64,000 nucleotides of DNA from Candidatus Moraniibacteriota bacterium (GCA_028711705.1 JAQTRS010000001.1:98761-162760); one strand, 5' to 3'. Counted from the first letter of the stretch, positions 2,755 to 51,722 are shown. Notes: generated by a model not told the origin, from the sequence alone. A program made the numbers and translations.

Positions 2755-2791
2755 CTCCTTTCTGCTTATGTGTACTGCACAAAATAATAAT

Positions 2792-4432: not shown

Positions 4433-4446
4433 AAATATTTTATTTA

Positions 4447-7400: not shown

Positions 7401-7461
7401 CTTCGCAAGATGCGCAGTGCATTCCGGTAATCCGTAGTCGTATTCTTTCTTTCATAGGCAT
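4447..7461 (-). CDS. copA: Copper-translocating P1B-type ATPase with two N-terminal HMA domains
   Basis: GMHCASCE and [11 protein letters not shown] motifs, a CPC ([11 protein letters not shown]) metal site, and DKTGTLT, TGDN and GDGINDAP P-type ATPase motifs. Confidence 0.95.
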
Positions 7462-7487
7462 TCTTTAGAATTAATTTCATCGAATAG

Positions 7488-7694
7488 TCAGATGGATGTC
7501 ACCGTATAACCAAGTCCGTCCAATGCTTCGGATATTTCATCACGTGCAATGACTCGACTGGCGCATACTTTGGATGCTCCATCCGGCTGGATGGTTACCT
7601 CGGTCACGTAGCTAATCTTCTTGATTTTCAGAGTTGATAATTTGACGCAGGCTTCGCAATGAAAACCGTTGATTTTGAATGTTGTTTCGTTCAT
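7488..7694 (-). CDS. copZ: Heavy-metal-associated domain copper chaperone (CopZ-like)
   Basis: 68-aa ORF with a GFHCEAC metal-binding motif at the canonical HMA position. Confidence 0.75.
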   Translation of the reverse strand: MNETTFKINGFHCEACVKLSTLKIKKISYVTEVTIQPDGASKVCASRVIARDEISEALDGLGYTVTSI

Positions 7695-7721
7695 ACGTAT
7701 TCTTTCAGAATAAAAAGTTGG

Positions 7722-14954: not shown

Positions 14955-14958
14955 AGGT

Positions 14959-21700: not shown

Positions 21701-21745
21701 ATATAGCCAAGATATATTCAGACTCAGTCGGTAGAGCAACGCATT
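21701..21745 (+). other. Degenerate partial copy of the tRNA-Thr 5' half plus its upstream 10-mer (pseudo-tRNA remnant)
   Basis: atatagccaa + gactcagtcggtagagcaacgca repeats atatagccaa + agctcagtcggtagagcaacgca of the intact tRNA 80 nt downstream. No T-arm or acceptor 3' strand follows. Confidence 0.4.
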
Positions 21746-21785
21746 CTCAACGAGTAAACCGCATACTGCCATTACCATAAATATA

Positions 21786-21858
21786 GCCAATGTAGCTCAG
21801 TCGGTAGAGCAACGCACTCGTAACGCGTAGGTCACCAGTTCGATTCTGGTCATTGGCT
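21786..21858 (+). tRNA. tRNA-Thr (anticodon CGU)
   Basis: Cloverleaf: GCCAATG-TA-GCTC-AGTCGGTA-GAGC-A-ACGCA-CTCGTAA-CGCGT-AGGTC-ACCAG-TTCGATT-CTGGT-CATTGGC-T. A TATACT promoter lies about 110 nt upstream. Confidence 0.85.
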
Positions 21859-21868
21859 CACACAAAAA

Positions 21869-32400: not shown

Positions 32401-33111
32401 ATGAAAATAAAAAATACACCTCCCGGATTCGCTTCAAAGCTTCTCGGGAATGGGCGGCGTGTCTTTATAATAAAGCCCCGCAGCCTGGATCTATACACCG
32501 TCCAACAAGATGTCAAACAAGAATTGGGACGTATAACCGCGTTCACTAATCAATTTGATTGCGTGAAACGGCACCTGATTCGCAAGAGCAGATTCTTCTG
32601 GAAGGTGGACTTGCGGAAAGCATTCGATCATGTGACATTCGCATCAGTCACCACCATTCCCAACCTTCCTGATGATATAAGGCATTCCCCACAACTCTTT
32701 TTCCATACGAACGGAGGACTCATCCAAGGTGCCCCATCATCCCCGAAAATCTTCCAGCTGTTTTGCCAACAACGCTTGGATCCAGAGATTCAGAAGTTCT
32801 GCGGGAAAAATACTATCGTCTACACGCGTTTCGCTGACGATCTTCTGTTCTCATCGAGGAAGGCTATCGGGAAAGGCGCACGCGAAAGAATACGCATCAT
32901 CATCCGCTACGCTGGATTTCACGTCAATGAGAAAAAGGTATCGCTCGTGGACAACAGCTATACACCCATCGAATATCTCGGCATGGAAATTTTTCAAGGA
33001 AGAGTCTCTCCCGAAAAAGAATTCCTCAAAAGATTCTCACTCATTCCGGATGGGCCGGAAAAAACCGGGATGCGCGGCTGGATAAAATCGGTGCTTGCGC
33101 TCAATACATGA
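32401..33111 (+). CDS. Mini reverse transcriptase (236 aa; fingers/palm only, no thumb/X, maturase or endonuclease domains)
   Basis: RT motifs in order: FFWKVDLRKAFDHV (motif 2/A, catalytic D), GLIQGAPSSPKIFQLF (motif 4/B, QGxxxSP), YTRFADDLLF (motif 5/C, FADD), GFHVNEKKVS (motif 6/D) and YLGMEI (motif 7/E). The protein ends about 35 aa after motif 7. Confidence 0.8.
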   Translation: MKIKNTPPGFASKLLGNGRRVFIIKPRSLDLYTVQQDVKQELGRITAFTNQFDCVKRHLIRKSRFFWKVDLRKAFDHVTFASVTTIPNLPDDIRHSPQLFFHTNGGLIQGAPSSPKIFQLFCQQRLDPEIQKFCGKNTIVYTRFADDLLFSSRKAIGKGARERIRIIIRYAGFHVNEKKVSLVDNSYTPIEYLGMEIFQGRVSPEKEFLKRFSLIPDGPEKTGMRGWIKSVLALNT

Positions 33112-37085: not shown

Positions 37086-38558
37086 ATGCTCAGGATTTAC
37101 AATACCCTCACCAAACAAAAGGAGATTTTCGAACCGCTCTACCCGGGAAAGGTCGGTATGTATACCTGCGGGCCGACGGTCTATGGGAAAATCCATATCG
37201 GCAATCTGCGCGCCTATCTCCTCGGGGATATGATACGCCGCTACTTCGAATACGCCGGCTATGAAGTGCGGGCCATCAAAAACATTACCGATGTCGGACA
37301 CCTCACCGACGACGATGTCGCCCAAGGCGATAGCGGCGATGACAAGATGATCAAGCAGGCCCTCAAAGAGCACAAAACGCCTCAAGAAATCGCACAGTTC
37401 TACGAGGAGTATTTCCACGTGACGGAAAAACAGATAAATATCCTCCCGGCTCACTATTTCCCTCGCGCCACCGCCCATATCCCGCAAATGATCAAACTCA
37501 TCGAGGAACTGATAACCAAAGGCCATGCCTATGAAAAAAACGGCAATGTCTTCCTCGATGTCACCACCTTCCCCGAATATGGCAGGCTCTCGGGCAACAC
37601 GCTCGACAAGCTCAAAGTCGGCGCCCGCCTCGAAGAACATCCCGACAAGAAAAACCCGTGGGACTTCGCGCTCTGGCTCAAGGCCCCAAAGAATCACCTG
37701 ATGAAATGGGAATCCCCTTGGTCCTTGGGGTATCCGGGATGGCATATCGAGTGCAGCGCGATGAGCATGGAATACCTTGGCGACACCTTCGACATCCACA
37801 CGGGCGGCGAAGACAATATCTTTCCGCACCATGAAGCCGAAATCGTGCAGTCCGAAGGCGTGACCGAAAAACCCTTCGCCCGCTACTGGCTGCATGTCCG
37901 CCACCTGCTTGCCGACGGCGTCAAGATGTCCAAATCCAAAGGCAATCTCTACACCCTCGAAGACATTCTCGACAAAGGCTATTCCGCCATGGACGTACGT
38001 TTCCTCCTCCTTTCGAGCCACTACCGCTCCCAGATGAATTTCACCTGGGAAGCCATGGATCAAGCCCGCTCCAATCGGGAGACGCTGCAGAATTTCCATG
38101 ACCGGCTTACCGAGTGTCATCCTGAGCCTGTCGAAGGATCTTTCCGATCAGAGCAAGATGCCTCGACTACGCTCGGAATGACACAGGATAAAATCTCTCT
38201 CGATACCGAGAAATATCGAGCCGATTTCGATGCCGCACTCGAAGAAGATTTCAACACGCCGCAGGCCCTGACCGTATTGTTCGACATGACCAAAAACGGC
38301 AATAAACTTATCGACGAGGACAGATTGGACAACCCAACCGATGTCCTGAAATTTCTGGAAACAAGCGCTGCCGTTCTCGGCCTGCAATGGACCAAAAAAG
38401 AAGCCATCCCGGAGCATATCCAAAAGCTCGCCGCCGACCGGGAAGAGGCCCGCAAACAAAGGAACTTCGCGCGTTCCGATGAGCTGCGAGAAGAGATAGA
38501 AAAAGCCGGGTTCAGTATCGAGGACACGGCCCAGGGTGCGAAACTCAAACGGATATAG
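37086..38558 (+). CDS. cysS: Cysteine--tRNA ligase (carries an in-frame palindromic-repeat insertion)
   Basis: HIGH motif (HIGNLRAY), KMSKS (VKMSKSKGN), Zn ligands and a DALR-like anticodon-binding domain ([10 protein letters not shown]). The 23-aa segment [23 protein letters not shown] is encoded by the repeat at 38115-38184. Confidence 0.95.
38115..38184 (+). repeat. Palindromic repeat family, copy A (in-frame inside cysS)
   Basis: tgtcatcctgagcctgtcgaaggatc...cgctcggaatgaca; the arms are imperfect reverse complements (GTCATYCYGAGC / GCTCGGAATGAC). Confidence 0.7.
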
Positions 38559-38565
38559 GACAAAT

Positions 38566-38604
38566 GAAAAACGGGAGTTCAATTCTGAATCTCCCGCTTT
38601 TTTG
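38566..38604. terminator. Bidirectional terminator between cysS (+) and the small 38624..38887 gene (-)
   Basis: aaaaacgggag-ttcaattctgaat-ctcccgctttttt. Confidence 0.7.
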
Positions 38605-38623
38605 ATTAAGACATAATGATGTC

Positions 38624-38887
38624 TTAATTTTCAATCCTTCTGTACTCGTTACAGCGATGCCCTCCGCACATGTGGATGGCATTTTTTTGATACGCTTCCG
38701 CCCATTTCCTATCATGCCCATCCACGACGGCGGATACAGCACGCTGCGAAAATTGCCGATCCGCAGTTTTATGAAACAATGCTATGCCTCCTCCGAATAG
38801 TATGCCCAGAAGAATCGCTAACGCAGCCGTCACTCCTATGACTTGGCATACTAACACGTAATCGGTCTTGAACTTATATTGAAGCAT
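38624..38887 (-). CDS. Hypothetical small membrane protein with a Cys/His-rich C-terminus
   Basis: 87 aa with a TM helix (VLVCQVIGVTAALAILLGILFGGGIALF) and a C-terminal HMCGGHRCNEY. A strong SD (AGGGGGAT) lies 3-6 nt before the ATG, and the gene has its own bidirectional terminator. Confidence 0.55.
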   Translation of the reverse strand: MLQYKFKTDYVLVCQVIGVTAALAILLGILFGGGIALFHKTADRQFSQRAVSAVVDGHDRKWAEAYQKNAIHMCGGHRCNEYRRIEN

Positions 38888-39059
38888 GTATCCCCCTATT
38901 TGATGTGATATCTCAGTTATTTATTTCTGCTGTATTGTGCCTGAAAATGCGGTGTATTCCGCACCTATTCATTTGTTAATGAACAAACCATAGTAGCATA
39001 TATTTTTCATTCCGTCAAGACTACCCGAAAGGCCTGGGCAAGTGTATACTAGAAGAACT

Positions 39060-40442
39060 ATGGCGAAGAGCTCCAACAATAATTTGGTGACGCAGTTGCG
39101 CATCCCGCCCAACAATCTCGAAGCTGAGCAGTCCGTGCTCGGCTCTTTGATGCTGGATAAGGACGCGGTCATCAAGATCGCCGACCTTCTCAAAGTCGGA
39201 GACTTCTACAAAGACGCCAACAACGACGTCTACGAGATCATGCTCGAACTCTACGAGAACCGCGAACCGCTCGATGTGCTCAGCATCTCCAACCGGCTCG
39301 AAGAAAAAGGCCGCCTTGATCGGATCGGCGGCGCAAGTTACCTTGCTTCCCTGGTCAACTCCGTCCCCTCCGCATCCAATGTCGTCCACTACGCCAAAGT
39401 GGTGCAGAAAAAAGCCATGCTCAGGCGACTCATCGGTGCCGCGAGCGATATTCTCGAAATGGGGTATAACGAATCCGAAGATGTGCAGAAAATCCTCGAC
39501 GAAGCGGAACAACGGCTTTTCAGGGTTTCGCAAAAATACATCAAGCAGGATTTCATCCCGATCAAATCCATACTCGAAAACGCCTTCGAGCGTATCGATG
39601 AACTGCACCGCAGCGACAACACCTTCCGCGGCGTGCCCAGCAATTACCCGGACCTCGACAATATGCTCTCGGGATTCCAGAAATCCGACCTCATCATCCT
39701 CGGAGCAAGACCATCTATCGGTAAAACGACTTTCGCGCTCGACCTGGCCAGGCAGATCAGCGTCTATTCCAAAGTTCCGGTGGGTATCTTCTCATTGGAA
39801 ATGGGTTCCGACCAGCTTGTGGATCGTATGATCGCCGCGCAATCCGGCGTGGATTTGTGGCGCCTGCGCACCGGAAAACTCCAAAGCGATGACTTCTCCA
39901 AGATTGGTGAGGCCATCGGCATCCTAAGCGAAGCGCCTATCTTCATCGACGACAGCGGCTCACTTAATATCATGGAAATGCGCACCATGGCACGCCGTCT
40001 CCAGTCCGAACACAATCTCGGTATGATCATCATCGACTACCTCCAGCTGATGGAAGGCCGCAGCCGGGGCGGCGACAACCGCGTGCAGGAAATTTCCGAA
40101 ATCTCCCGCGGACTCAAGCAGCTGGCACGCGAACTCAATATCCCGATCATGGCGCTCTCGCAGCTGTCCCGCGGTATCGAAGCCCGTCAGGATCAGATGC
40201 CCAAGCTCTCCGACCTCCGCGAATCCGGATCCATCGAACAGGACGCCGACGTCGTGCTCTTCCTCTCCCGCGAGGACCGCTACAAGCCCGACACCCCGAA
40301 CAAAAACATCGTCGACGTCGTCATCGCCAAACACCGTAACGGCCCGATCGGTAAGATCCAACTCTACTTCCAAGAGAACTCCACGACTTTCAAGTCTCTG
40401 GAGCGCCTCCACGATGCCAGCCAAGCTCCGCAGGAACATTAG
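39060..40442 (+). CDS. dnaB: Replicative DNA helicase DnaB
   Basis: N-terminal domain (PPNNLEAEQSVLGSLMLD), Walker A GARPSIGKTTFAL, Walker B IIIDYLQLM and arginine finger region. The start is taken at the ATG (MAKSS) rather than the upstream GTG. Confidence 0.95.
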   Translation: MAKSSNNNLVTQLRIPPNNLEAEQSVLGSLMLDKDAVIKIADLLKVGDFYKDANNDVYEIMLELYENREPLDVLSISNRLEEKGRLDRIGGASYLASLVNSVPSASNVVHYAKVVQKKAMLRRLIGAASDILEMGYNESEDVQKILDEAEQRLFRVSQKYIKQDFIPIKSILENAFERIDELHRSDNTFRGVPSNYPDLDNMLSGFQKSDLIILGARPSIGKTTFALDLARQISVYSKVPVGIFSLEMGSDQLVDRMIAAQSGVDLWRLRTGKLQSDDFSKIGEAIGILSEAPIFIDDSGSLNIMEMRTMARRLQSEHNLGMIIIDYLQLMEGRSRGGDNRVQEISEISRGLKQLARELNIPIMALSQLSRGIEARQDQMPKLSDLRESGSIEQDADVVLFLSREDRYKPDTPNKNIVDVVIAKHRNGPIGKIQLYFQENSTTFKSLERLHDASQAPQEH

Positions 40443-40461
40443 AATCATTTTCGGGTAGTTT

Positions 40462-40497
40462 AAAAGGCTAGAGTGATTTTCATCTCTAGCCTTTTAA
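40462..40497. terminator. Bidirectional terminator after dnaB
   Basis: aaaaggctagag-tgattttcat-ctctagcctttt. Confidence 0.7.
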
Positions 40498-40506
40498 TGA
40501 CGAATG

Positions 40507-40803
40507 TTATCCGCCATCGCAATACTTGCCGAACTTAGCTACCAAATCTTTTGGCGGAATTGTATCGGTAATATCATATTTATCATCAATAGTAATTTTC
40601 AAAGATCCATCTCTTGCTTTAGCAATAGCGCCATGCAAGTTGACTGTTCCGCAAACATAGTTTGTTGAATGACGCGCCTCATATTCCATTTGTCCCGTAC
40701 GCCACACTCCTAAAGGAATTGCAAGTATTGTTGCTAGCATTAATATCCTCGCGACCCATTTCCCTACTCCACCAAATAACAATTTGTCTATTGTGTTACT
40801 CAT
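40507..40803 (-). CDS. Hypothetical membrane-anchored small protein
   Basis: 98 aa with one TM (VARILMLATILAIPLGVW); AT-rich. Confidence 0.4.
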   Translation of the reverse strand: MSNTIDKLLFGGVGKWVARILMLATILAIPLGVWRTGQMEYEARHSTNYVCGTVNLHGAIAKARDGSLKITIDDKYDITDTIPPKDLVAKFGKYCDGG

Positions 40804-41002
40804 GATGTTCCCCTTATGGATGAATCTTATCCGACATCAAGCGGACAGACTCGGTTAAAAAATATTTCCTACGACGCCTCTAACCGACTTTTGTCAGCGA
40901 TATCCGCTATCTCCAGATTGTTAAAGGATGCTTTATCATAGCAAAGATACCGTATTTTGTCAAGTACAGCGAAAGCAGGTATACTGAAATGACTTCTTTA
41001 TG

Positions 41003-41105
41003 TGTCATTTCGAGCTTGCCGAGAAATCTTCTACGCTTGTAAACAGATCCTTGCGCCACCGCTAAAGCTTTATGCGACACGCGGTCGGCTACGCTCGGGA
41101 TGACA
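41003..41105 (+). repeat. Palindromic repeat family, copy D (intergenic, in the 5' leader region of recR; long variant)
   Basis: tgtcatttcgagcttgccgagaaatc...gctacgctcgggatgaca, 103 nt, with the same terminal inverted repeats as copies A-C. It lies downstream of a TTGTCA-N17-TATACT promoter. Confidence 0.65.
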
Positions 41106-41191
41106 ATCGTGAGTCTTGTGCTTTATAAATTGTCCGACGTTTACTATTGTTTGTTTTTTTGTTGACTATTAATTGTTGTCTGTTATCCGAT

Positions 41192-41785
41192 ATGTATCCC
41201 AAACCATTTGAAAAATTGATAAGCCACTTCACTTCCCTGCCGTCCGTCGGACCAAAGATGGCGGAGCGTTTGGTGCTCTATCTCTTCAAGCAGGACCAAG
41301 AGAAACTCGAAGACTTCGCGCAGTGCCTCGAAGATATCCATAAGCTCCAAATCTGCAAACAGTGCTTCCATATCGCCGAAGGGACGCTGTGCAGCATCTG
41401 CATGGATCCGCGCCGCGACATGGCGGTTTTGTGCGTCGTCGAAGAGCCGCTCGACATCATCGCCATCGAACGCACCCGAAGTTTCCAAGGACGCTACCAT
41501 GTTTTGGGCGGCGTTATGGAACCGGCCAAAAAAAACTCGGTGGCGGCTCCGCTCCATATCCCTGAACTTTTGCAGCGCATCGAGGACGAGAATATCAAAG
41601 AGGTCATCCTGGCCACCAACCCCACCACCGAAGGCGACCTGACCGCCCTCTACCTCAAGAAAAAACTCGAACCCTTCCATATCAAAGTTACCCGCATCGC
41701 CAGGGGCCTCGCTACCGGCGGTGACATCGAATACGCCGACGAGATTACCCTCACCTCCGCCATCACCAATCGCAAAGATTTATAA
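41192..41785 (+). CDS. recR: Recombination protein RecR
   Basis: HhH motif (LPSVGPKMAERL), C4 zinc finger (CKQC...CSIC) and Toprim domain (AVLCVVEEPLDIIAIERT...ILATNPTTEGD). The start is set at the internal Met (MYPKPFEKL). Confidence 0.9.
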   Translation: MYPKPFEKLISHFTSLPSVGPKMAERLVLYLFKQDQEKLEDFAQCLEDIHKLQICKQCFHIAEGTLCSICMDPRRDMAVLCVVEEPLDIIAIERTRSFQGRYHVLGGVMEPAKKNSVAAPLHIPELLQRIEDENIKEVILATNPTTEGDLTALYLKKKLEPFHIKVTRIARGLATGGDIEYADEITLTSAITNRKDL

Positions 41786-41908
41786 ATGACCCGATTTTTT
41801 TCCTCTTTTTAAACGATTTATAGGCTTGCGCAATACCGTTGTTATCTTTATAATGAAAAGAGCTTACGGAAAAGGCTGTTATAGTGTTAAGTTATTGAAA
41901 TACCCTCT

Positions 41909-43189
41909 ATGAATCACGAAAAGACAGTGTGCGTCATCGGACTCGGTTACGTCGGACTTCCGATGGCCATCCGTTCAAAAGAAGTCGGCTATGAGGTGTA
42001 CGGTCTCGATCTTGATCAATCCAAACTCGACCTGATCAATCAAGGGAAAAGCCCGATCGAAGAGGCCTACATCGAAGAGCGCATCGCACAATTCCCTGTC
42101 ATCGCCACAAACGATGCCGCCGTCATCCGAAAGGCGGACATCGTTTTGATATGCGTGCCTACTCCGGTCGACGAATCCTATTATCCGGACCTGACCCCGG
42201 TCATCAAGGCAGTGGAAACGACCGTCAAAAATCTCAAGAAGGGCGCGCTCGTCGTGCTCGAATCCACCGTCAATCCCGGCGTGAGCGAAGAGATTATCCG
42301 CCCCCTTTTCGAATCAGCCGGGCATATCGTCGGTCAGGATGTATTCATCGCGCATTGCCCTGAACGCGTCAATCCGGGAGACAAGACATGGAATGTTTCC
42401 AATCTTCCGCGCGTGGTCGGATCATTCGATCAGACCGGCCTTGATATCGCGCTGGAATACTATCGCTCCATCTCATCCGGCGAAATCCGCCCGATGAAGT
42501 CCATCCGCGAAGCCGAGGCGGTTAAAATCGTGGAAAACTCTTTCCGCGATATCAATATCGCCTTCGTGAACGAGCTCGCGAAATCGTTCGATAAGCTCGG
42601 CATCGATATCAAAGACGTCATCTTGGGTGCCGCCACCAAGCCGTTCGCTTTCATGGCTCACTACCCATCCTGCGGCGTCGGCGGACACTGTATCGCTGTC
42701 GATCCCTACTACCTGATCGAACGAGCCAAGAAATCCGGATTCGATCACAAATTCCTCAAGATTGCCCGTGAAATCAATAACAGCATGCCGGAATACACGG
42801 TTGAGAAATTGCAAGACGCGCTCAATCTCGTGAAACTCCCTATGAACGGCACCGCAATCGGCGTGCTCGGACTCGCCTACAAAGCGAACGTGGACGATAC
42901 TCGCGAATCACCGGCTTTCGAAGTCATCAAAAACCTCAACAAGCATCTGGCAATCGTTGAGACATTCGATCCGCACGTGCTTGGGAAGTCAACTTCGCAA
43001 TCATTGGAAGCGATTCTTGAAAAATCAAAGGCTGTCATCGTCACGACCAATCACAAGGAATTCATAGACATGCTGACTCCTGAGCTCCTCAACAAGTACG
43101 GCATCTTGGTCGTCATCGATGGAAAGAACTGTCTGGATAAAGACTTATTGGAATCTGCCGGTATCATCTACCGAGGCATCGGCCGCTAA
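41909..43189 (+). CDS. Nucleotide-sugar dehydrogenase (UDP-glucose/GDP-mannose dehydrogenase family)
   Basis: N-terminal Rossmann fold (VCVIGLGYVGLPMA), catalytic Cys region (GVGGHCIAVDPYYL) and a C-terminal UDP-binding domain. Confidence 0.9.
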   Translation: MNHEKTVCVIGLGYVGLPMAIRSKEVGYEVYGLDLDQSKLDLINQGKSPIEEAYIEERIAQFPVIATNDAAVIRKADIVLICVPTPVDESYYPDLTPVIKAVETTVKNLKKGALVVLESTVNPGVSEEIIRPLFESAGHIVGQDVFIAHCPERVNPGDKTWNVSNLPRVVGSFDQTGLDIALEYYRSISSGEIRPMKSIREAEAVKIVENSFRDINIAFVNELAKSFDKLGIDIKDVILGAATKPFAFMAHYPSCGVGGHCIAVDPYYLIERAKKSGFDHKFLKIAREINNSMPEYTVEKLQDALNLVKLPMNGTAIGVLGLAYKANVDDTRESPAFEVIKNLNKHLAIVETFDPHVLGKSTSQSLEAILEKSKAVIVTTNHKEFIDMLTPELLNKYGILVVIDGKNCLDKDLLESAGIIYRGIGR

Positions 43190-43295
43190 CCCGCACAACA
43201 AACACCCATAAACAATGAGCGGGTCTTTGCCACAACCATACACCCTACCGTTTATCCCTCGTTCATTGTTGATTGTTAACTGCTAACTATACGTT

Positions 43296-43535
43296 ATGTT
43301 TCACCTTATCCGCTTTATCATTTGGCTCGCAGGCGTTCTTGTCGTCAGCTATTTCGTGCTGAGCTACTTCGGCTACGAAGTTAATCAGCATTATTTCGAC
43401 CAAAGCAAAGCGAAATGCCAAGAATTGATCGCGCAGTGCCAAAAAAACGTTATCCATAAAGGTGTGGATGACGTTAAAAACTGCGAATACCAATGCGTCA
43501 ATCCAAGCCTTATCATCCAAAAGAAAGCCAAATAA
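43296..43535 (+). CDS. Hypothetical small membrane protein with four Cys
   Basis: 79 aa with an N-terminal TM and a CQELIAQCQ...CEYQC tail; no SD, so possibly leaderless. Confidence 0.4.
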   Translation: MFHLIRFIIWLAGVLVVSYFVLSYFGYEVNQHYFDQSKAKCQELIAQCQKNVIHKGVDDVKNCEYQCVNPSLIIQKKAK

Positions 43536-43571
43536 CCAACGTGTCGTGACTTTATTCACTATCCATAGCCT

Positions 43572-44522
43572 ATGAGACTTATCGTAAACATCCCCGCATT
43601 CAACGAAGAGGAGAAGCTCAGTGAAACCATCAAGCGCATACCGACCCGATTTTCGGGAATCGACGAGGTATTCGTGCAGGTTATCGACGACGGATCGAGC
43701 GACAACACTTTCGACATCGCCAAAACTGCCGGGGCGCATTTCGTCTATGCAAACGGTATCAACCGCGGCATCGGGAAAACCTTCCGCCATGCCGTCGAGA
43801 GAGCTCTCGAAAACCACGCCGATATCATGGTTAACATTGACGCGGACGGTCAGTTCAACCCGCAGGATATTGCGAAACTCATTGCACTGATACTCGAACA
43901 CAAGGCGGATATCGTAAGCGCCGACCGTTTCGGTGAGCACAAAGCCAAAAATATCCCATGGATAAAGGATAGCATGAACCGCCTCGCTGCCAATCTAATC
44001 GGATGGTTTATGAATGTACCCATCAAGGACCTCACCTGCGGATTCCGCGCTTACAACAAAGAAGCGTTGCTTCGCCTCAATCTGCCAGGCGATTTCACCT
44101 ACACCCAAGAAACCATCATCGACGCCTTGGGCAAGGGACTCAAGATACGGTGGGTACCGGTCGAGGTCACCTATTTTGCGGAGCGAAAATCCCGCGTCGT
44201 CAAGAGCATTTTCAAATATATCAATTCCAGCGCGCGCATCATCATCAAGGCCGTGCGCGATGTCCGTCCGATGAAATTCTTCGGTATCCCCGGAGCGATA
44301 CTGATGCTGCTGTCTTTCGTATTCTTCGGCATGTTCATCGTCAACTACCTCGGGGATTTCAAGATCAGTCCATATCGTAATCAGCTCTTTTTCGGAGGCG
44401 GATTCTTCATCGTCGGATTGCAATTCGTTGTCTTCGCGCTCATCGCCGATATGATCAGATCCAATCGACGCTTGAACGAAGATCAGTTTTATCTCACCAA
44501 AAAAGAACTGTACAAAAAATAA
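43572..44522 (+). CDS. Family 2 glycosyltransferase, polyprenol-phosphate sugar transferase type (DPM1/ArnC/GtrB-like) with two C-terminal TM helices
   Basis: GT-A fold with VIDDGSSDNT and a DAD (DADGQ) motif; two C-terminal TM helices as in GtrB/ArnC. Confidence 0.85.
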   Translation: MRLIVNIPAFNEEEKLSETIKRIPTRFSGIDEVFVQVIDDGSSDNTFDIAKTAGAHFVYANGINRGIGKTFRHAVERALENHADIMVNIDADGQFNPQDIAKLIALILEHKADIVSADRFGEHKAKNIPWIKDSMNRLAANLIGWFMNVPIKDLTCGFRAYNKEALLRLNLPGDFTYTQETIIDALGKGLKIRWVPVEVTYFAERKSRVVKSIFKYINSSARIIIKAVRDVRPMKFFGIPGAILMLLSFVFFGMFIVNYLGDFKISPYRNQLFFGGGFFIVGLQFVVFALIADMIRSNRRLNEDQFYLTKKELYKK

Positions 44523-44543
44523 ATCCCCTTCCATTTTTATTCT

Positions 44544-45635
44544 ATGAGTACGAGTGAACAAACGAAAATCCTCTTTATTTCTCGTGCCTACCCGCCCATC
44601 ACCGGCGGCATCGAAAACCAGAATTATGAACTCTCCGTCTGGCTGCCGAAAATCGCCCAGGTAAAAACCATCGCCAACCGCAAAGGGAAAAAAGCCCTGC
44701 CGTTTTTCTTGCCTTGGGCGACTGTGCGCGCCCTATGGCTCGCGCCCCGCTATGATGCGATACTTTTGGGTGACGGCGTTTTAGGTATCGTCGGATACGC
44801 TGTAAAATGCCTCTACCCGAAGAAAACCGTCGTTTCCGTCGTGCACGGACTCGACCTCACCTTCACCTCCGGTATATACCAACAGTGGTGGGTCAAAAAA
44901 TTCCTCCCGAAGCTCGACAAACTCATCGCCGTCGGCAATGAAACCGTCCGGGTCGGCGTGGAACGCGGCATTCCTCGGGAAAAATTCGTCTTCATTCCCA
45001 ATGGTGTCGATACGGAAAAATACTTCCGTAACTATTCCCGTCAAGACCTCGAGCGTATCCTGAAGGAATCTGTATCGGATAAGAAAGTACTGCTCACTTC
45101 CGGGCGGCTCGCCAAAAGAAAAGGCGTGGCCTGGTTCATACGAAACGTCCTTCCGAAACTTCCGGAAAACATCGTCTATATTGTTGCTGGTGATGGCAAT
45201 GACAAAGAGAACATCCGAAACGCCGTAACACAAACGTCTATGTCCTCACGCCTCCGCCTGCTCGGTTTCGTAAACGATGAAACACGTGACATCCTCCTCA
45301 ACACCTGCGATCTGTTCATCCAGCCCAATATCCGTGTTCCCGGCGATATGGAAGGATTCGGCATCTCGGTCATCGAGGCGGCCTCATGTCAGATACCGGT
45401 CATCGCATCACGCCTCGAGGGATTGCAGGACGCCATCAAGGATAGCGAGAACGGATTTCTGGTAGAGCCGGAGAATGCAAATGGTTATATCGAAAAAATA
45501 CGCCTCCTGCTCGCGGACGACACCCTGCGGGAAACATTCGGGAAGCAAGCGCGGCAATACGTCATCGATAACTTCCACTGGGACTCGATCGCCAAACGGT
45601 ATTTAGCTATAATCGAAGCAACTCTTAAAAAATAA
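44544..45635 (+). CDS. Family 4 (GT-B) glycosyltransferase
   Basis: EGFGISVIEAASCQIPVIASRLEGLQDAIKDSENGFLVEP, the GT4 E-x7-E signature region. Confidence 0.85.
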   Translation: MSTSEQTKILFISRAYPPITGGIENQNYELSVWLPKIAQVKTIANRKGKKALPFFLPWATVRALWLAPRYDAILLGDGVLGIVGYAVKCLYPKKTVVSVVHGLDLTFTSGIYQQWWVKKFLPKLDKLIAVGNETVRVGVERGIPREKFVFIPNGVDTEKYFRNYSRQDLERILKESVSDKKVLLTSGRLAKRKGVAWFIRNVLPKLPENIVYIVAGDGNDKENIRNAVTQTSMSSRLRLLGFVNDETRDILLNTCDLFIQPNIRVPGDMEGFGISVIEAASCQIPVIASRLEGLQDAIKDSENGFLVEPENANGYIEKIRLLLADDTLRETFGKQARQYVIDNFHWDSIAKRYLAIIEATLKK

Positions 45636-45639
45636 GCCT

Positions 45640-47685
45640 ATGCACTTCATCCAGGAACAAGTTCTTTTCTTTATCGCGATTTTCCTTGTTCTTTTCGTGC
45701 CGGGACTGGTTTTGCTGCGCTCTTTTTTCAAACACTCGTTCACATCGCTCGAGTGCTTCGTCTTTTCAGTGCCGCTCAGCATCGCCGCCACCAATTTCCT
45801 GATGATAACCTTAGGGAGATCCGGCATCACGCTGATGGTAGCCTCCATTATCGCAAGCATTATCGCTTTTACGCTGGTGACTTTCCTTGTCTCCAAAGCG
45901 ATTCCGCAGAAAACGACTCAGGAAAAGCGCAGCGGAATCAAACCCTTCACCAAAAACCAAGGTCGGCTCATCATCCTGATCCTGATTCTGACCATCTTCA
46001 TCAAGACAATCTATCTCTCGCAGGTCATCCTCCCGACCGCGACCGACCTTGGGCACCACATGTACTGGTCGAAGTCCATCGCCGTCACGGGCGAGCTTCC
46101 ACAGTATGTCGAGCGCAATATCGTCCGCTCCGAAACGGATGGTACATATGCTCTCGGCGAGGCGGAACCTATCGACGACTTCATCATTGGCGAACACCTG
46201 ATCTTCGCTGCCATCGCCCTCATCGCGGGCCTTGATTTCATATCCGGATTCCCGGCCATCATACTCCTTCTCATCAATATATTCTCGCTCCTCGCTCTTT
46301 TCCTGTTCGTCTTGCGCGCTTTTTCGCACCGATCGCTCGCGAAAACGGGCATCTCTGCGAACACGGTCGCCATTCTCACGCTCTTCGTGCTCGGTCCGCT
46401 GTATACCATTGCTTCACCTCAGGCAAAATTCGTTTCCGGCGGAGTAATCGGCAATACTATCGGCAACCTTTTTATACCGGTAATCCTCTATTGCTACTGG
46501 CGCGCGCTCCAAGAAAAAAGCTCGAAGCTTTTAACGCTCGCCTTCTTCCTTACCTTTGGACTCGTCTATATCCATCATCTCAGCACGCTCGTTTTCCTTT
46601 TCATTATCTTCTTCACTATCGTCATTTTCAGCATCCTCCACATCAAAACCATCCATATTAGCATCAAAGAGTGGGCGTTGCTCGTTTTCAAGCCGGCTCC
46701 CATCATCCTCGCTATCGCAGCCATTCTCTTTTCCTTCTTCGTCCTCGCGCCCAGCTATGCTGATCCGAAGTCGCTCAATACCGCCCTGGGCGCTCCAACC
46801 AAGGCGACCCGCACCGGGCTGACATTTCTGCAACTCACCTTCTCGACCGGAGAAGGGCGGCTCGGCTTGGGACTGGTCGGACTCCTCGCTTTAATTTTCT
46901 TCCGATTAAAAGAAAATCGTTCGATCAAAGAAGCTTCCTACGCGATTGCCTTCTTCTTCGCCTGGGGATTATCACTCCTCATCATGTCGCTTCGCCCACA
47001 GTGGCTTTTCCTCGACATCCCTTCCAATCGCATCAGCACCTATGCCATTTTCCCGTTCGCGATACTTTCAACCCTTGCTTTCACGCTTCTGTTCAAGCAA
47101 CAGAAAACCATTAACAGTCAACAATCTACCCGAAATGCTTCGGATAACGATGCCGGCGGGTCAACAATCAACGAAAAACACTCCCGTAACAACACACCCC
47201 TAACAATCAGCGCCTTCATCGTTATCCTCACATTTTTTATTGTCGGAGGATTCTACGATAACGGACAAAGCCTCCTTGGGAAAACCAAGGCGCAGGAAGC
47301 TATCGAAACCTACCACGTTTCTGATTATCTCGCGCAGCATACAAATCAGAACGACATCATCCTCAAGGATCACAACTATATCGTCGCTGATTCCTGGATG
47401 AAGCTCTCATTCCTTCGAGGCTACACCTATCCGCTCTCACGCGGTTACTTCAAACGCTACGAAGACGAGACCAAGCCGCGCGAACAATGCTCGCTCTGGA
47501 TGATCGCCGTACCAAACACCGACAAAGGACAGAAATGCTTCAATGAAACCGGCACTGATATCATCGTCGTCAACCCTCATTTCGACAGCACTCAATTCAA
47601 AAAATCCCCAGATTTCAACTCCATATACCAATCCGGTGATATCGCGGTGTATATGAGAAAAAACCAGTCAACAAACAGCGATTAA
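45640..47685 (+). CDS. Large polytopic membrane protein with a C-terminal extracytoplasmic domain (probable cell-envelope glycan polymerase or GT-C-like protein)
   Basis: 681 aa with at least 12 TM helices and a roughly 200-aa hydrophilic C-terminal domain, inside the glycosyltransferase cluster. Confidence 0.65.
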   Translation: MHFIQEQVLFFIAIFLVLFVPGLVLLRSFFKHSFTSLECFVFSVPLSIAATNFLMITLGRSGITLMVASIIASIIAFTLVTFLVSKAIPQKTTQEKRSGIKPFTKNQGRLIILILILTIFIKTIYLSQVILPTATDLGHHMYWSKSIAVTGELPQYVERNIVRSETDGTYALGEAEPIDDFIIGEHLIFAAIALIAGLDFISGFPAIILLLINIFSLLALFLFVLRAFSHRSLAKTGISANTVAILTLFVLGPLYTIASPQAKFVSGGVIGNTIGNLFIPVILYCYWRALQEKSSKLLTLAFFLTFGLVYIHHLSTLVFLFIIFFTIVIFSILHIKTIHISIKEWALLVFKPAPIILAIAAILFSFFVLAPSYADPKSLNTALGAPTKATRTGLTFLQLTFSTGEGRLGLGLVGLLALIFFRLKENRSIKEASYAIAFFFAWGLSLLIMSLRPQWLFLDIPSNRISTYAIFPFAILSTLAFTLLFKQQKTINSQQSTRNASDNDAGGSTINEKHSRNNTPLTISAFIVILTFFIVGGFYDNGQSLLGKTKAQEAIETYHVSDYLAQHTNQNDIILKDHNYIVADSWMKLSFLRGYTYPLSRGYFKRYEDETKPREQCSLWMIAVPNTDKGQKCFNETGTDIIVVNPHFDSTQFKKSPDFNSIYQSGDIAVYMRKNQSTNSD

Positions 47686-47726
47686 CAGTTAACGAGAAAA
47701 CAGCCTCACCGATAATCAACTACTGC

Positions 47727-47901
47727 GTTAATAGAGAGGTGACATGTTTGATTGAGAGTCCGGCACCTAGGCGCGATAAGAGCCAGGTACGCAAAGGCAA
47801 GACCTGTATGGATGTTATCTTCCCTCTATCTCGAAAGAGATTCCCATCGCTAACGCCGATCATGTCGGACTCGAAAGCGAACATGTCACCTCTCTATTAA
47901 C
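47727..47901. repeat. 175-nt element bounded by perfect 22-bp inverted repeats (MITE-like or highly structured RNA)
   Basis: gttaatagagaggtgacatgtt (47727-47748) is the exact reverse complement of aacatgtcacctctctattaac (47880-47901). Nested internal pairings include gagtccg/cggactc and an atctc-gaaa-gagat GNRA hairpin. It occupies the gap between two + strand genes. Confidence 0.55.
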
Positions 47902-47912
47902 CACACAACATC

Positions 47913-48263
47913 ATGTCTCAAAAATCCGTCATCATCGCCATCATCTCCCTCCTCGCCCTAAGCTTCATCAGCCTCGGCTTCATCGAAAACCGCGCTAAAG
48001 ACCCCAACCTCAATAAAGATTGGTGGGCGCTTTCTTTCCAGAATCCTCACGGAAACAGCCTTGATTTCACCATTGAAAATCATAGTAACTCGAACAACTT
48101 CACCTACGAGGTAACGCAGGACGCAACCACACTCACCAAGGAAGCGATCATCATCCCAAAAGGGACCACAAAAAACATCTCGATAAGCCAAAGAACCTCA
48201 GACACTAAAACGATGATCAGCGCCTGGACGAACGATGAAGATAAGAAAGAGATTTATAAATAA
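47913..48263 (+). CDS. Hypothetical secreted or membrane-anchored small protein
   Basis: 116 aa with an N-terminal signal anchor (VIIAIISLLALSFISLGF) and a Thr/Asn-rich body. Confidence 0.5.
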   Translation: MSQKSVIIAIISLLALSFISLGFIENRAKDPNLNKDWWALSFQNPHGNSLDFTIENHSNSNNFTYEVTQDATTLTKEAIIIPKGTTKNISISQRTSDTKTMISAWTNDEDKKEIYK

Positions 48264-48288
48264 ACACGCTTCTCAAACAACACATCCT

Positions 48289-49527
48289 ATGTCAATCAAA
48301 AAAATCCTGCTCGCAACGCGGCCGCTCACTCCTCCTTGGGACGAAGCTTCCAAAAATTTCGCGTATTTCCTCGCTAAGAGCATCAAAGATCCGGAATTGC
48401 AGATGAATATCCTTACCACGTCGACTCCGCTCGATGGCTTGGGAGACAATGTCGTATCACACCCTATATTCCCCCTCTACGATGCCTCGCGCGCCGGGCA
48501 TTCTTTCTCACAAAAAGTTATCCTTTCAAAATACCTCTTTACTGAAAGCCACCGCTACGATATCGTGCACTACCTTTTCACACCGACCGCGCTCAATTCA
48601 GCCCTCATCAGAAATTTCACCTATCGACGTCCGAAAACCGTACAGACCATCGCTACATTACGCGAGGATTTGTACGGGCCGAAAGACTGGAAGAAAATGC
48701 TATTCGCCGATCGTATCGTAACCTATTCGGATTATTCCAAAAGAAAGCTCGAGGCGAACGGATTTACAGGAATCGAACGTATTTACCCGGGAATAGACCT
48801 CGACCTCTATGCTCCGAAACCGAAAAACGAAGAGGCTCTCAAGCACTTCGATCTTACACGTGAAGATGTTGTCGTGATGTATCCGGGAGAATATGTCCGC
48901 CTCGGCGCAACCGATATGCTCGTAGAGATGCTCATTACATATTTAAAATCACAATCTTCTGATTGTCATCCCGAGCTTGTCGAGGGATCTTCCCAGATAG
49001 AAACAGATTCCTCCACTACGGTCGGAATGACACGTGCAAAAACCATCACATTCATCTTCGGTTGCCGGATTAAAAACGAAGCGGATCAAAAGAAAAAAGA
49101 CGAAGTTGTCGCCAAACTCACCCAGGCAGGCATCATCGACTGCGTCAGATTCACCGACACCTGGAAAGATATGCCGACGCTCTACAATCTTTCTGATATC
49201 GTCATCTTTCCGGTCGAGAATATGCGTGGAAAATTCGATATCCCACTCGCCATCATCGAAGCCTATGCCTGCGGAAAGCCGGTCATTCTCTCTGATCTGG
49301 AGATTTTCCAAGAGTTCTCCTCGCCGGAATTTTCCGTCACCATTCCTTTGGCACGCCAAAGCCTAAGCGAAGGCGGCCGCACCCTCTGGCAAACCATCCT
49401 TGACCTGCAATCCGATGAATCAAAAAGAAAAAGGCTCGGCACAAATGCACGAACTTTTACTGAGCAATTCTTCGATTTAAAGAATACCGCTCAAAGCTAC
49501 GAAAGGTTATATGCTTCACTGCAGTAG
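48289..49527 (+). CDS. Family 4 glycosyltransferase (carries an in-frame palindromic-repeat insertion)
   Basis: GT-B fold with a C-terminal EAYACGKPVILSDLEIFQEF E-x7-E-like motif. The segment CHPELVEGSSQIETDSSTTVGMT is encoded by the repeat at 48964-49032. The start is chosen at MSIKK to avoid overlap with the upstream gene. Confidence 0.8.
   Translation: MSIKKILLATRPLTPPWDEASKNFAYFLAKSIKDPELQMNILTTSTPLDGLGDNVVSHPIFPLYDASRAGHSFSQKVILSKYLFTESHRYDIVHYLFTPTALNSALIRNFTYRRPKTVQTIATLREDLYGPKDWKKMLFADRIVTYSDYSKRKLEANGFTGIERIYPGIDLDLYAPKPKNEEALKHFDLTREDVVVMYPGEYVRLGATDMLVEMLITYLKSQSSDCHPELVEGSSQIETDSSTTVGMTRAKTITFIFGCRIKNEADQKKKDEVVAKLTQAGIIDCVRFTDTWKDMPTLYNLSDIVIFPVENMRGKFDIPLAIIEAYACGKPVILSDLEIFQEFSSPEFSVTIPLARQSLSEGGRTLWQTILDLQSDESKRKRLGTNARTFTEQFFDLKNTAQSYERLYASLQ
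48964..49032 (+). repeat. Palindromic repeat family, copy B (in-frame inside the GT4 gene)
   Basis: tgtcatcccgagcttgtcgagggatcttcccagatagaaacagattcctccactacggtcggaatgaca, 69 nt (23 codons). Confidence 0.7.
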
Positions 49528-49624
49528 CCCTCTCGCTTAAAAGCAAGACGGGGGTACATCCACGTGTTTCAAACTCAAGGCTCAGGTTGCAAACCTGAAC
49601 TTGCGAAATAAAGTAAACATTGTA

Positions 49625-49658
49625 AAACCGTCATAAGAGCTCTTATGACGGTTTTTCG
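49625..49658. terminator. Terminator built on a perfect 30-nt palindrome
   Basis: aaaccgtcataagag|ctcttatgacggttt followed by TTCG; an A-run precedes it, so it could act in both directions. Confidence 0.65.
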
Positions 49659-49716
49659 AACGTTATATCTTCGGAGTCTTAAAACCACAATTGAGCCAAA
49701 AGGCCAAAAAACATTA

Positions 49717-50010
49717 TCAAAAAAACGTATATGCATATGCTGGCACAACCGAACCAAAATCCATATCATCAAAACCACTTTGATTAATGTTTTTTTGTTT
49801 GGATATTTCCGCTTCATCTTGACAAAGCATAAGAACCATTCCGAAAAACAAAAGGAATAATCCTATGGCCACATGCCTTTCATAACTTATCCGAAACAGG
49901 TTTTCACCAAACGGAAGCATAAGAAATCCCAAACCGGAAATAATTCCGCAAAGAATGCCTCTCAAAAAACCTTTTGAATCTCTTGCATCGCCTTCTTTAT
50001 TCTCAAGCAT
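49717..50010 (-). CDS. Hypothetical small membrane protein (AT-rich)
   Basis: 97 aa with two TM helices; SD-like GAGGT 8 nt upstream; terminator 60 nt downstream. Confidence 0.4.
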   Translation of the reverse strand: MLENKEGDARDSKGFLRGILCGIISGLGFLMLPFGENLFRISYERHVAIGLFLLFFGMVLMLCQDEAEISKQKNINQSGFDDMDFGSVVPAYAYTFF

Positions 50011-50135
50011 GATCTCTACCTCGATTTTTAAGTTTCAAAAATGGAAAAGGCTTTAAATAAACTTGCCCGTGACCATTGTTTCCTGGTATACTTCATATGT
50101 ATGCCAGCTTTCCAATATAGTATATATTCCTCTCT

Positions 50136-51722
50136 ATGTCAACCATAAAAATTGAGAAATTAGCCGAACATAAACAGCAGTTCCAGACGGAAAAAATGAA
50201 GGTTCCGGTGGTTTTACATATCAACGATGCGCTGCTTCCCGAAGAGTCCACGCTTTTGCAGCTGCAGTCCGTCGCGTCCAATGACTGTTGCTTTCATCAC
50301 ATCGCCGGCATGGCCGATGTTCACTCCAAACCCGGACGCAAAAACGCCACCGGCACAACCGTAGCTTCCGAAAAGTTCATCCTGCCTCAGGTCAACGATT
50401 CCGACCCGGCCTGCGGTATGCGTTTGGTCCGCACCAACCTGACCGAAGACAATATCACACCGGAGGAACTCGACAAACTTTTCAAGGAACTCGTCTACAA
50501 GGTACCCACCAAAAAATATGTCGGTACCTATATCCCCTTCCGCGTCGTCGTCGACATCTGCCGCAAGGGTATCGGTCCGCTTATCGATCACCTCGGCATC
50601 AAGACCAAATTCGAAAAGGAGAACGCCTTGGGAGGCGAGAACTTTTTTACCACCACTCGTCATCCCGAGCTTGTCAATGGATCTCCTCAAACAGAAATAG
50701 ATTCCTCCGCTACGGTCGGAATGACAAATGGAAGCGCCCCCTCCCGCCAAGACATCTTTAACATTATTCCCAAACTCTTCCTATTTTTCGCGCAATTCCG
50801 TCTCGGTATCTTAGGCGCAGCCGGCAACCACTTCCTTGACCTCATGAAGGTCACGGACATTGAGGACGAGGAAACCGCGCAGAAACTGGGCATCAAAAAA
50901 GGCCAGTACCTCTTCATGGTGCACTGCGGATCAGGCATACTCGGGCAGTACACGATGTATATGTATACCGCCAAGAAACGCGAACACCTCTCGACCGCTA
51001 TCCTCATGAATATCGGGCGCTTCTTCTGGAGCACGCCGTACAGAAAAACCATCGACCTGATCGCCAAGAAAATACGCGAATCGGACTTCGGAAAGAAAGA
51101 GCCGCTTATCACCTTCGATGGCGAGGGCGACGACGGGAAAATGTATATGGCGGCCCGCAATGCCTGCTCCAACTTCGCCCATGCCAATCGCGCCGTTATC
51201 ACGCACAATGTCGGCGAAACGATCCAGAGAGTGCTCGGCCGCGACGCAGGGCTTGAGCTTCTCTATGACATGCCGCATATCCTCGTGAGTAAAGAGGAGC
51301 ACTTCGGCAAAAATATCTGGGTGCACCGCAACGGGACCTCACGCGCCTATGGCCCATCCCGCATGAAAGAGCATCCGCTCTTCAGCCAGACCGGCGAACC
51401 CGCCTTCATCCCGTCCTCCATGAGCACCGAAGCCTATATCTGCGTCGGTACCGACCACAACGAATCCAGCTTCTTCTCCTGCAACCACGGCGCCGGAAAA
51501 GCCGCTAAAAAAACGGAAGATATCGTCCCGGAAAGCCAAGAGGAGCTCCGCAAAAAACTTAAGTCCAAGGGAGTCCAGCTCTATAACGGTCAGTCCAAGA
51601 AAGTCATCGAGCAGGACTCCTCGCACTACAAGCGCATCGAGGATGTCATCGCCGGAGCCAAGGCGAACAATATCGTAAAGCCCATCGCCAAGATGCAGCC
51701 GATTTCGATCATCATGTACTAA
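50136..51722 (+). CDS. rtcB: RNA-splicing ligase RtcB (carries an in-frame palindromic-repeat insertion)
   Basis: RtcB motifs ACGMRLV (metal-binding Cys), HCGSGILGQY and CNHGAGK (catalytic His region). The 23-aa segment RHPELVNGSPQTEIDSSATVGMT comes from the repeat at 50658-50726. Confidence 0.9.
   Translation: MSTIKIEKLAEHKQQFQTEKMKVPVVLHINDALLPEESTLLQLQSVASNDCCFHHIAGMADVHSKPGRKNATGTTVASEKFILPQVNDSDPACGMRLVRTNLTEDNITPEELDKLFKELVYKVPTKKYVGTYIPFRVVVDICRKGIGPLIDHLGIKTKFEKENALGGENFFTTTRHPELVNGSPQTEIDSSATVGMTNGSAPSRQDIFNIIPKLFLFFAQFRLGILGAAGNHFLDLMKVTDIEDEETAQKLGIKKGQYLFMVHCGSGILGQYTMYMYTAKKREHLSTAILMNIGRFFWSTPYRKTIDLIAKKIRESDFGKKEPLITFDGEGDDGKMYMAARNACSNFAHANRAVITHNVGETIQRVLGRDAGLELLYDMPHILVSKEEHFGKNIWVHRNGTSRAYGPSRMKEHPLFSQTGEPAFIPSSMSTEAYICVGTDHNESSFFSCNHGAGKAAKKTEDIVPESQEELRKKLKSKGVQLYNGQSKKVIEQDSSHYKRIEDVIAGAKANNIVKPIAKMQPISIIMY
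50658..50726 (+). repeat. Palindromic repeat family, copy C (in-frame inside rtcB)
   Basis: cgtcatcccgagcttgtcaatggatctcctcaaacagaaatagattcctccgctacggtcggaatgaca, 69 nt. Confidence 0.7.

Follow-up and report, generated by a model that had tools for sequence, protein, structure and literature searches.

Palindromic repeats with the tag CGTC are a superfamily of repetitive extragenic palindromic (REP) sequences described by Di Nocera, De Gregorio and Rocco in 2013 (BMC Genomics 14:522, PMC3733652). The tag, which is often TGTC or CCTC instead, is combined with a stem of 8-9 bp that opens with complementary A and T, a loop of 4-5 nt and a short tail with the consensus CCA. The units mostly occur as head-to-head dimers, those inside genes encode 20-30 amino acids (aa), and no dedicated transposase is known for them (PMC3733652). 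The family includes Neisseria dRS3 and two Rickettsia palindromic elements (RPEs) of R. conorii, RPE-4 (CGTC-4) and RPE-6 (CGTC-1), and the peptides published for in-gene units are of the types RHPREGGDP... and, in R. conorii, VIPWLDHGIQ...CGMT (supplementary table), VIPAKAGI...LDSRFRGND, and in two synthetases VVPAKAGTS...IPASAGMT (GlyRS-beta) and VTPAEAGVS...IPASAGMT (IleRS) (PMC3733652). RPEs in protein genes go back to Ogata et al. 2000 (Science 290:347), as that work is related in PMC10969869. Here we describe palindromic repeats that in all likelihood belong to the same superfamily, in a 64-kb stretch of a Candidatus Moraniibacteriota genome (GCA_028711705.1, JAQTRS010000001.1:98761-162760). 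This whole stretch is called the window, and all copy counts for the source genome refer to it.

Three protein genes of the window each contain one imperfect 69-nt palindrome, and a fourth copy lies between genes:

37086-38558, plus strand: cysS, cysteine--tRNA ligase, 490 aa (Pfam tRNA-synt_1e, DALR_2, CysS_C)
38115-38183, plus strand: CGTC-type REP head-to-head dimer in cysS, 69 nt, in frame, CysS residues 344-366
about 38115-38142 (left) and about 38155-38183 (right), plus strand: the two arms of the cysS copy, from the arm patterns and the arm profile
41003-41106, plus strand: fourth copy, intergenic, arms at 41003-41030 and about 41081-41105, upstream of a recR-like open reading frame (ORF) at 41147-41785
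48235-49527, plus strand: gene of a family 4 glycosyltransferase (GT4), longest ORF 430 aa (Pfam Glyco_transf_4, Glycos_transf_1)
48964-49032, plus strand: CGTC-type REP head-to-head dimer in the GT4 gene, 69 nt, in frame, encoding CHPELVEGSSQIETDSSTTVGMT
50136-51722, plus strand: rtcB, RNA 3'-phosphate ligase family, 528 aa (Pfam RtcB in two stretches with the insert between them)
50658-50726, plus strand: CGTC-type REP head-to-head dimer in rtcB, 69 nt, in frame, encoding RHPELVNGSPQTEIDSSATVGMT

An earlier note on this DNA had proposed three copies of about 70 nt in these genes. The sequence is as it described, but the first copy ends at 38183 and not at 38184, and all three are 69 nt long. 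Its figure of about 80% mutual identity agrees with the 75-87% that we measured by global pairwise alignment over 69 nt (a repeat search gave 76% and 85% to the reference copy), its host assignments agree with the Pfam domains, and the copies do share orientation and frame, all of them beginning at codon position 1 of the host ORF. The encoded peptides are CHPEPVEGS...TTLGMT, CHPELVEGS...TTVGMT and RHPELVNGS...ATVGMT. All three host proteins are 100% identical to proteins of a metagenome-assembled genome of Candidatus Moranbacteria (Patescibacteria, or Candidate Phyla Radiation, CPR), where they are encoded on a 323-kb contig, and the GT4 protein is 412 aa in NCBI, which implies a start at 48289.

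The left-arm pattern GTCATCCCGAGCNTGTCGANGGATC (25 nt, at most 3 mismatches) matches the three genic copies only, with 0.00 matches expected from 100 shuffles, and the right-arm pattern CTACGNTCGGAATGACA (17 nt) matches four times in the window, where 0.03 matches are expected. A profile made from 25 arms finds eight arms, which form four dimers, in the whole window, all of them at 38.1-50.7 kb. The arms of the intergenic copy have E-values of 2e-4 and 8e-4 with this profile; its spacer is longer than in the genic copies and its right arm is partly decayed. The neighbouring recR-like ORF takes its identity from a RecR-annotated gene in locus L002 of a relative, to which it is 91% identical. 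Since one copy is intergenic, what repeats here is DNA and not a motif of proteins. The four dimers are confined to 12.6 kb and the other 51 kb of the window are free of arms, a clustering that suggests local spread or a history specific to the region.

Every arm reads (T/C)GTC, AT-CCC-GA-G, a loop of 5-6 nt, C-GA-GGG-AT and a short tail. In a dimer the arms point outward on either side of a spacer of 12-18 nt, and the whole 69-nt unit folds into one long hairpin. The outer tag is TGTC in seven of the eight window arms and CGTC in the remaining one, and of 64 family copies 53 have T and 7 have C as the base preceding GTCAT. Every arm has the AT...AT ends, the 8-position stem consists of six Watson-Crick pairs and a central G.A/A.G pair, and the loops are CTTGT or CCTGT (5 nt) in left arms and CGTAG(T/C) (5-6 nt) in right arms. 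All four window copies are tag-outward dimers with hairpins of -17 to -38 kcal/mol, the last value being that of the intergenic copy. Folded as RNA, the genic copies form one long hairpin each on both strands, at -17 to -36 kcal/mol (-32.5 sense and -36.2 antisense for cysS) and with z-scores of -1.6 to -5.6; the weakest score is that of the rtcB copy on the sense strand, which 14 of 200 shuffles match. In each of the genic copies the antisense hairpin exceeds the mRNA-sense hairpin in stability by 4-9 kcal/mol, and A.C mismatches on the sense strand correspond to G.U pairs on the antisense strand. The weaker fold of the sense strand may reflect selection against strong mRNA structure.

The likeness to the CGTC REPs described earlier is extensive. 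It includes the outer tag, in part the 8-position stem that starts with A/T, the 5-nt loop and the short tail, and further the head-to-head dimers that fold into one hairpin, the in-frame segments of 20-30 aa in genes including aminoacyl-tRNA synthetases, the peptide ends RHP... and ...GMT, and the lack of an associated transposase (PMC3733652). The differences are that the hosts in the 2013 survey were Proteobacteria, Chlorobi, Bacteroidetes, Spirochaetes and Thermotogae, not Patescibacteria (PMC3733652), and that the window subfamily has the central G.A/A.G pair, which makes a weak single-arm hairpin, a CTT tail and a short spacer of 12-18 nt. Relatives of the window genome carry sister subfamilies with perfect 8-bp stems, tails of CCA and CCC, and a canonical perfect-stem unit, TGTCATTCCCGCGAAGGCGGGAATCCA, that is read as VIPAKAGI; the VIPAKAGI and LDSRLRGND peptides of these relatives are the same as those of RPE-6 of R. 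conorii. The left-arm pattern is found at no fewer than 120 genome loci among the matches listed, in many phyla: Verrucomicrobiota, Bacteroidota (with cultured Hymenobacter and flavobacteria), Chloroflexota, Kiritimatiellia, several CPR lineages, Firmicutes, spirochaetes and Proteobacteria, and also in a few viral contigs. The full dimer of the window subfamily is present at 72 metagenome loci.

We are therefore confident that the window repeats are non-autonomous palindromic repeats of the CGTC-tagged REP superfamily, which have spread and become fixed in frame in tolerant loops. The suggestion in the earlier note that they are selfish repeats like the RPEs is supported in the same way, by the CGTC REP layout and by the membership of RPE-4 and RPE-6 in that family (PMC3733652). 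A number of points weigh against this assignment. A single arm on its own reaches just -0.9 to -4.7 kcal/mol, not better than shuffles, the canonical REP stem of 8-9 bp is only partly realised in the window subfamily, and the tail is CTT, CTC, CTA or CTG and not CCA. The window copies are 75-87% identical, none of them is demonstrably recent, no mobility event has been observed, and the copy number is that of 64 kb of genome. A transposase, Y1_Tnp included, was found neither among the 33 window ORFs scanned with Pfam nor in the annotated syntenic loci of relatives. Filtering of frame and length can be demonstrated in the sequences, and translation of the inserts is what we infer. Finally, the structural model of RtcB is weak (mean pLDDT, the predicted local distance difference test, of 66), and the RtcB tree used below is a distance (neighbour-joining) tree, built without the loop, that has no support values.

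Earlier work has already described the CGTC REP class, its occurrence inside genes including those of aminoacyl-tRNA synthetases, and the lack of any known transposase. Apparently new are the CPR host phylum, the particular host genes, and the evidence for re-use of sites, turnover at the level of arms and recombinational spread. We found no paper on palindromic or REP repeats of this kind in the literature on CPR/Patescibacteria, and nothing relevant in the literature on the encoded peptides. Rfam gave no match to the element at gathering thresholds, the only window matches being two tRNAs, and at permissive E-values its matches to the element were at chance level (E of 2 or more).

The RPEs are a close parallel, as they too are palindromes fixed in frame in housekeeping genes that have nothing to do with one another, in a genome that is small and reduced, and are tolerated in loops, according to what PMC10969869 relates of them. 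Their host, however, is an intracellular alphaproteobacterium, whereas ours is a free-living or episymbiotic member of the CPR; RPE-1 is longer, about 150 bp, and the replacement in place by other subfamilies that we see here is something we have not found described for RPEs.

The insert in CysS lies 3' of the catalytic domain, whose Pfam match ends at residue 328 with KMSKS upstream, and 5' of DALR_2 (residues 381-433), which is where the earlier note had put it. In the GT4 protein the insert separates Glyco_transf_4 and Glycos_transf_1, the two Rossmann halves, and in RtcB it is part of a 31-residue loop that stands in place of a 4-residue loop. AlphaFold models give pLDDT below 50 in coil at CysS residues 347-366, between confident helices at 321-343 and 374-386, and likewise at RtcB residues 167-198, ahead of a helix at 204-227, in a model with a mean pLDDT of 66. 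That the segments sit in surface loops, as the earlier note had it, is a matter of predicted coil in both proteins, with the weaker model on the RtcB side. In alignments with sequences of the PDB no solved structure has the segment, and the RtcB insertion region is left uncovered by them. The models suggest that the inserts probably are disordered loops or linkers that the host proteins tolerate. The window GT4 also contains another short insertion specific to its lineage, LARQSLS, at about 49360-49380 (residues about 358-364 of the 412-aa form), near the C-terminal domain, and it does not resemble the repeat.

The closest orthologues of the three host proteins are 79-89% identical and all of them are without the segments, which upholds the absence from orthologues that the earlier note expected. 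For CysS the nearest ones (79-81% identity, 473 aa) have no segment, for GT4 the baseline length without insert is 371-378 aa and the segment is missing from orthologues like P0247 and P0249, and the syntenic relative GCA_964624415.1 (loci L002 and L004) is empty at all three sites. In the alignments the inserts are lineage-specific. The element amounts to 23 codons, as had been claimed, but the net gain over the nearest insert-free orthologue in codon alignments is +17 codons in CysS, +27 in RtcB and +28 in GT4, since there are differences in the adjoining parts of the loops as well. Codon alignment with L002 and L004 was also tried as a source of exact boundaries and target duplications and was rejected, the loop flanks being too diverged. 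The greater length of CysS in comparison to E. coli, which had been taken as evidence of insertion, does not hold as such, since a solved homologue of 490 aa (8qhp) has a segment of similar length there.

As the source is a metagenome-assembled genome, one could suspect an artefact of assembly or binning, or a chance likeness between low-complexity loops. An identical CysS, insert included, is however found on an independent 3-kb Logan contig, a relative that was assembled independently (L136) has the window subfamily at the same two sites in GT4 and RtcB, and the shuffles predict zero matches, so we consider this explanation to be practically negligible.

The earlier note had seen a signature of RPE-like selfish repeats in features that include the shared frame and orientation. 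Through the element frames +1 and -1 are closed by the TGA in ATGAC and frame -2 by the TAG in the CGTAG loop, and only three of the six frames are open. Three genic copies would for this reason fall in one frame by chance about once in nine, and the shared frame and orientation are accordingly weak evidence and no signature of a mechanism. Elsewhere in the family each of the three frames is in use, and we reject the shared frame as an indication of how the element moves. Length is more telling: inside open stretches of at least 150 aa 11 of 18 dimers have an in-frame length, compared with 19 of 57 elsewhere. In this family selection for read-through can be seen. A copy in a gene would survive only if its length is a multiple of three, its frame is one of the three open ones and its site is a tolerant linker or loop, and a surviving copy would be translated as a hydrophilic, probably disordered loop of about 23 residues in CysS, GT4 or RtcB.

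A quite different explanation is that the element acts at the level of RNA, with the hairpin excised from the mRNA and the ends rejoined, for instance by RtcB, giving proteins without the segment. CPR genomes are known for insertions in their rRNA genes, the hairpins are strong, and one of the host genes itself encodes an RNA ligase. Still, the genic copies are 69 nt long, free of stops and in frame, the enrichment of in-frame lengths in long open stretches argues against removal from the RNA, the sense strand folds worse than the antisense strand in all three genic copies, and no Rfam family matches. We find excision highly improbable.

The ends of the element can be placed at T|GTCAT...ATGAC|A, and in 64 non-identical copies the sequence beyond one position on either side is essentially unconserved. 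Direct repeats of 2, 4, 5, 6 or 8 bp are found at the ends of none of these 64 copies, and repeats of 3 bp at the ends of two, where about one is expected. This absence argues against a MITE (miniature inverted-repeat transposable element) of the DDE type, and is compatible with a mechanism that acts on hairpins or single strands. The element is admittedly small, multicopy and widespread and has terminal inverted repeats, TGTCAT...ATGACA, much as one would expect of a classical MITE, a deletion derivative of a DDE insertion sequence that moves by cut-and-paste. Bacterial MITEs (ERIC, Correia and those of Anabaena and Coxiella) are likewise small non-autonomous inverted repeats able to form in-frame fusions (PMC10969869). 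They differ, however, in coming from DDE insertion sequences and in having target-site duplications (PMC10969869), of which no example of 2-8 bp stands out here. There is also no transposase gene in the window or the syntenic loci, and the whole element is one hairpin made of two REP-like units, not short terminal repeats around unrelated DNA. A classical MITE is for these reasons very unlikely.

Another relevant comparison is with the REPINs of Bertels and Rainey (2011, PMC3116915), which are inverted REP doublets in one hairpin, make no target-site duplication and form genome-specific sequence populations. But they have a GTAG tag, where ours is CGTC/TGTC, they are essentially extragenic, and they depend on a single-copy gene for a REP-associated tyrosine transposase (RAYT) that is flanked by REPs (PMC3116915); no Y1 transposase is found in the window or the syntenic loci. 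In the mechanism that we propose, copies of CGTC REPs would spread in the genome without target-site duplication, mobilised in trans by an activity specific for single strands or hairpins (HUH/Y1-like), or by template switching during replication, and this activity could favour places where such hairpins are present beforehand.

The same loops appear to have been occupied more than once in Moranbacteria. In other CysS proteins different repeat-like peptides are found at the same linker (CHCERNE...LPRKD and ...EIATSR...GTRND), and one has a remnant there, SSTTVGMT. The GT4 proteins of other genomes have other repeat peptides at the insertion site of the window. Of 120 RtcB orthologues from Moranbacteria, 103 have only four residues in the loop at the site (GEEK, DREM etc.), and the other 17 carry inserts there, at precisely this position, that are 15-41 residues long. 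The insert-bearing alleles are scattered on the RtcB tree, often beside insert-free sisters that are 92-96% identical, and they have flanks in common: the loop starts with T in 14 of the 17, against 6 of the 103 empty alleles, and it ends in (I/V/A)P before SR in all 17, against 11 of the 103 with a P before SR. Most of them retain the right-arm peptide DSSxTxGMT, and their left arms differ. In protein P0140 the seven residues after the insert are SRRDIKN, where its whole clade has TKKEITD, and this flank is common to insert-bearing alleles of other clades. We infer from such flanks that the expanded RtcB loop has been transferred by homologous recombination, together with co-converted flanking sequence.

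Comparisons between syntenic loci also show that one subfamily is replaced by another in place. L134 and L135 have different dimers (RSERSEEP...LRYAQDD and HPELVSGS...LKQVQHD, respectively) beside a shared older remnant. The RtcB copy of L134 matches the GT4 copy of the same locus at 94% identity, with the spacer counted in, whereas copies at the same site compared between genomes are only 50-58% identical. L136, the most distant of five syntenic genomes, has the window subfamily at both the GT4 and the RtcB site. The sites lie within 12.6 kb, and linkage could thus explain part of the agreement within a genome.

In L135 a small extra hairpin, CCTGCCTACCGGACAGGCAGG, is nested in the left-arm loop of a CGTC dimer in the GT4 gene, at about 9005-9030. 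In L136 tandem duplications of 24 nt at the right end of the element have produced 8-aa repeats, QGESVEMT/QSEVVGIT in rtcB (about 10500-10560), where the left arm is lost, and RGESLGMT in GT4 (8825-8850). Further CGTC-type dimers are found at a second site in the N-terminal half of GT4, in P0252, P0256 (L135 8522-8620), P0254 and P0264, with peptides such as VISAKAGIQ...LDSRLRGNDI and VLSETKDPC...ILRPAQND. Judging from these alignments, the GT4 gene is hit at several sites.

Two explanations of the repeated occupation have to be weighed. One is that each Moranbacteria lineage has received its own fresh insertion at a target hot spot, in the identical positions of RtcB, GT4 and CysS, from whichever CGTC subfamily was active at the time. 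The adjacency of insert-bearing RtcB alleles and insert-free sisters across the tree speaks for independent insertions, and so do the different subfamilies at the same site between genomes combined with the likeness of copies within a genome (94% in L134, 87% in the window) and the empty sites of L002 and L004. Yet it is not what one would expect from the T...P flanks that insert-bearing RtcB alleles share and empty ones rarely have, from the right arm DSSxTxGMT that most have kept, from the remnant unit common to L134 and L135 beside different dimers, or from the foreign 7-residue flank downstream of the insert in P0140. These shared flanks, the right arm, the remnant and the P0140 flank point to common descent plus recombination, and the 12.6-kb linkage alone could explain the agreement within genomes. 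We regard repeated fresh insertion as possible but rather doubtful.

The other explanation, which we prefer and which is shown in part, is that gene segments with an insert have been passed on by descent and have also crossed between lineages through homologous recombination, and that single arms or whole dimers have been replaced in place by the CGTC subfamily that is common in the genome concerned. In a bolder form of it, a loop cassette with its flanking codons would pass between CPR lineages by homing-like co-conversion, and its arms would then be overwritten or re-seeded by the dominant subfamily, with CGTC REPs targeting existing REP hairpins. This bolder form is a tentative proposal, to which we give no better odds than to the hot spot.

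The persistence of the expanded RtcB loop over much of the Moranbacteria tree, and the conservation of the right-arm peptide DSSxTxGMT, could also mean that the hairpin or the peptide has been exapted, to slow translation, to affect mRNA stability or as an interaction loop, and roles at the RNA level have been suggested for transcribed REPs (PMC3733652). However, 103 of the 120 orthologues manage without the insert, unrelated subfamilies take one another's place at a given site, predictions show the segment as disordered, and the element is also found between genes. We therefore think that an acquired function is unlikely.

A few other features of the window are worth noting. A different inverted repeat, with 39-nt arms that are 87% complementary and 97 nt apart, is found at 47727-47765 and 47863-47901, in the intergenic region before the ORF at 47913-48263; in L002 a canonical CGTC-1 dimer (7798-7896) occupies the intergenic stretch that follows the corresponding 117-aa ORF. 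At 32401-33111 on the plus strand there is a short RVT_1 reverse-transcriptase ORF of 236 aa, which is conserved in the relative (L004 3487-4203) and is preceded in the window by a 345-aa ORF that has no Pfam match; it could belong to a diversity-generating retroelement or a retron. Upstream of the intact tRNA-Thr at 21786-21859 lies a partial duplicate (21713-21760, 88% over 34 nt) of the 5' half of this tRNA and of the upstream 'atatagccaa'. Neither ARAGORN nor Rfam calls it as a tRNA, and it may be a scar of integration or excision. The minus strand holds a copper-handling cluster at 1550-9134 (a cupredoxin/COX2-like protein, DUF302, a multicopper oxidase, a P-type ATPase with HMA domains and a fusion of HMA, DsbD_2 and cupredoxin) and at 13062-16812 two tandem GH130 (mannoside phosphorylase) paralogues of 630 and 617 aa, both of which have an N-terminal extension of about 300 residues that has no Pfam match.

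If the window repeats are what we take them to be, selfish DNA of the Rickettsia type in protein genes extends to the Candidate Phyla Radiation, whose genomes are likewise very small and leave little room between genes. The extra loops of CPR CysRS, RtcB and glycosyltransferases would then be derived from repeats and not be functional domains, which matters for annotation, alignments and structure prediction. Which enzyme mobilises the CGTC REPs is an open question (PMC3733652), and gene-poor CPR genomes with different subfamilies at the same sites are a favourable place to seek it. If the loop cassette does pass between lineages as tentatively proposed here, CPR genomes of about 1 Mb with few genes could reveal the mobilising activity of a pan-bacterial repeat superfamily, and the re-use of the RtcB site together with co-conversion of its flanks would, if confirmed, add a recombination route to the ways in which such repeats spread.

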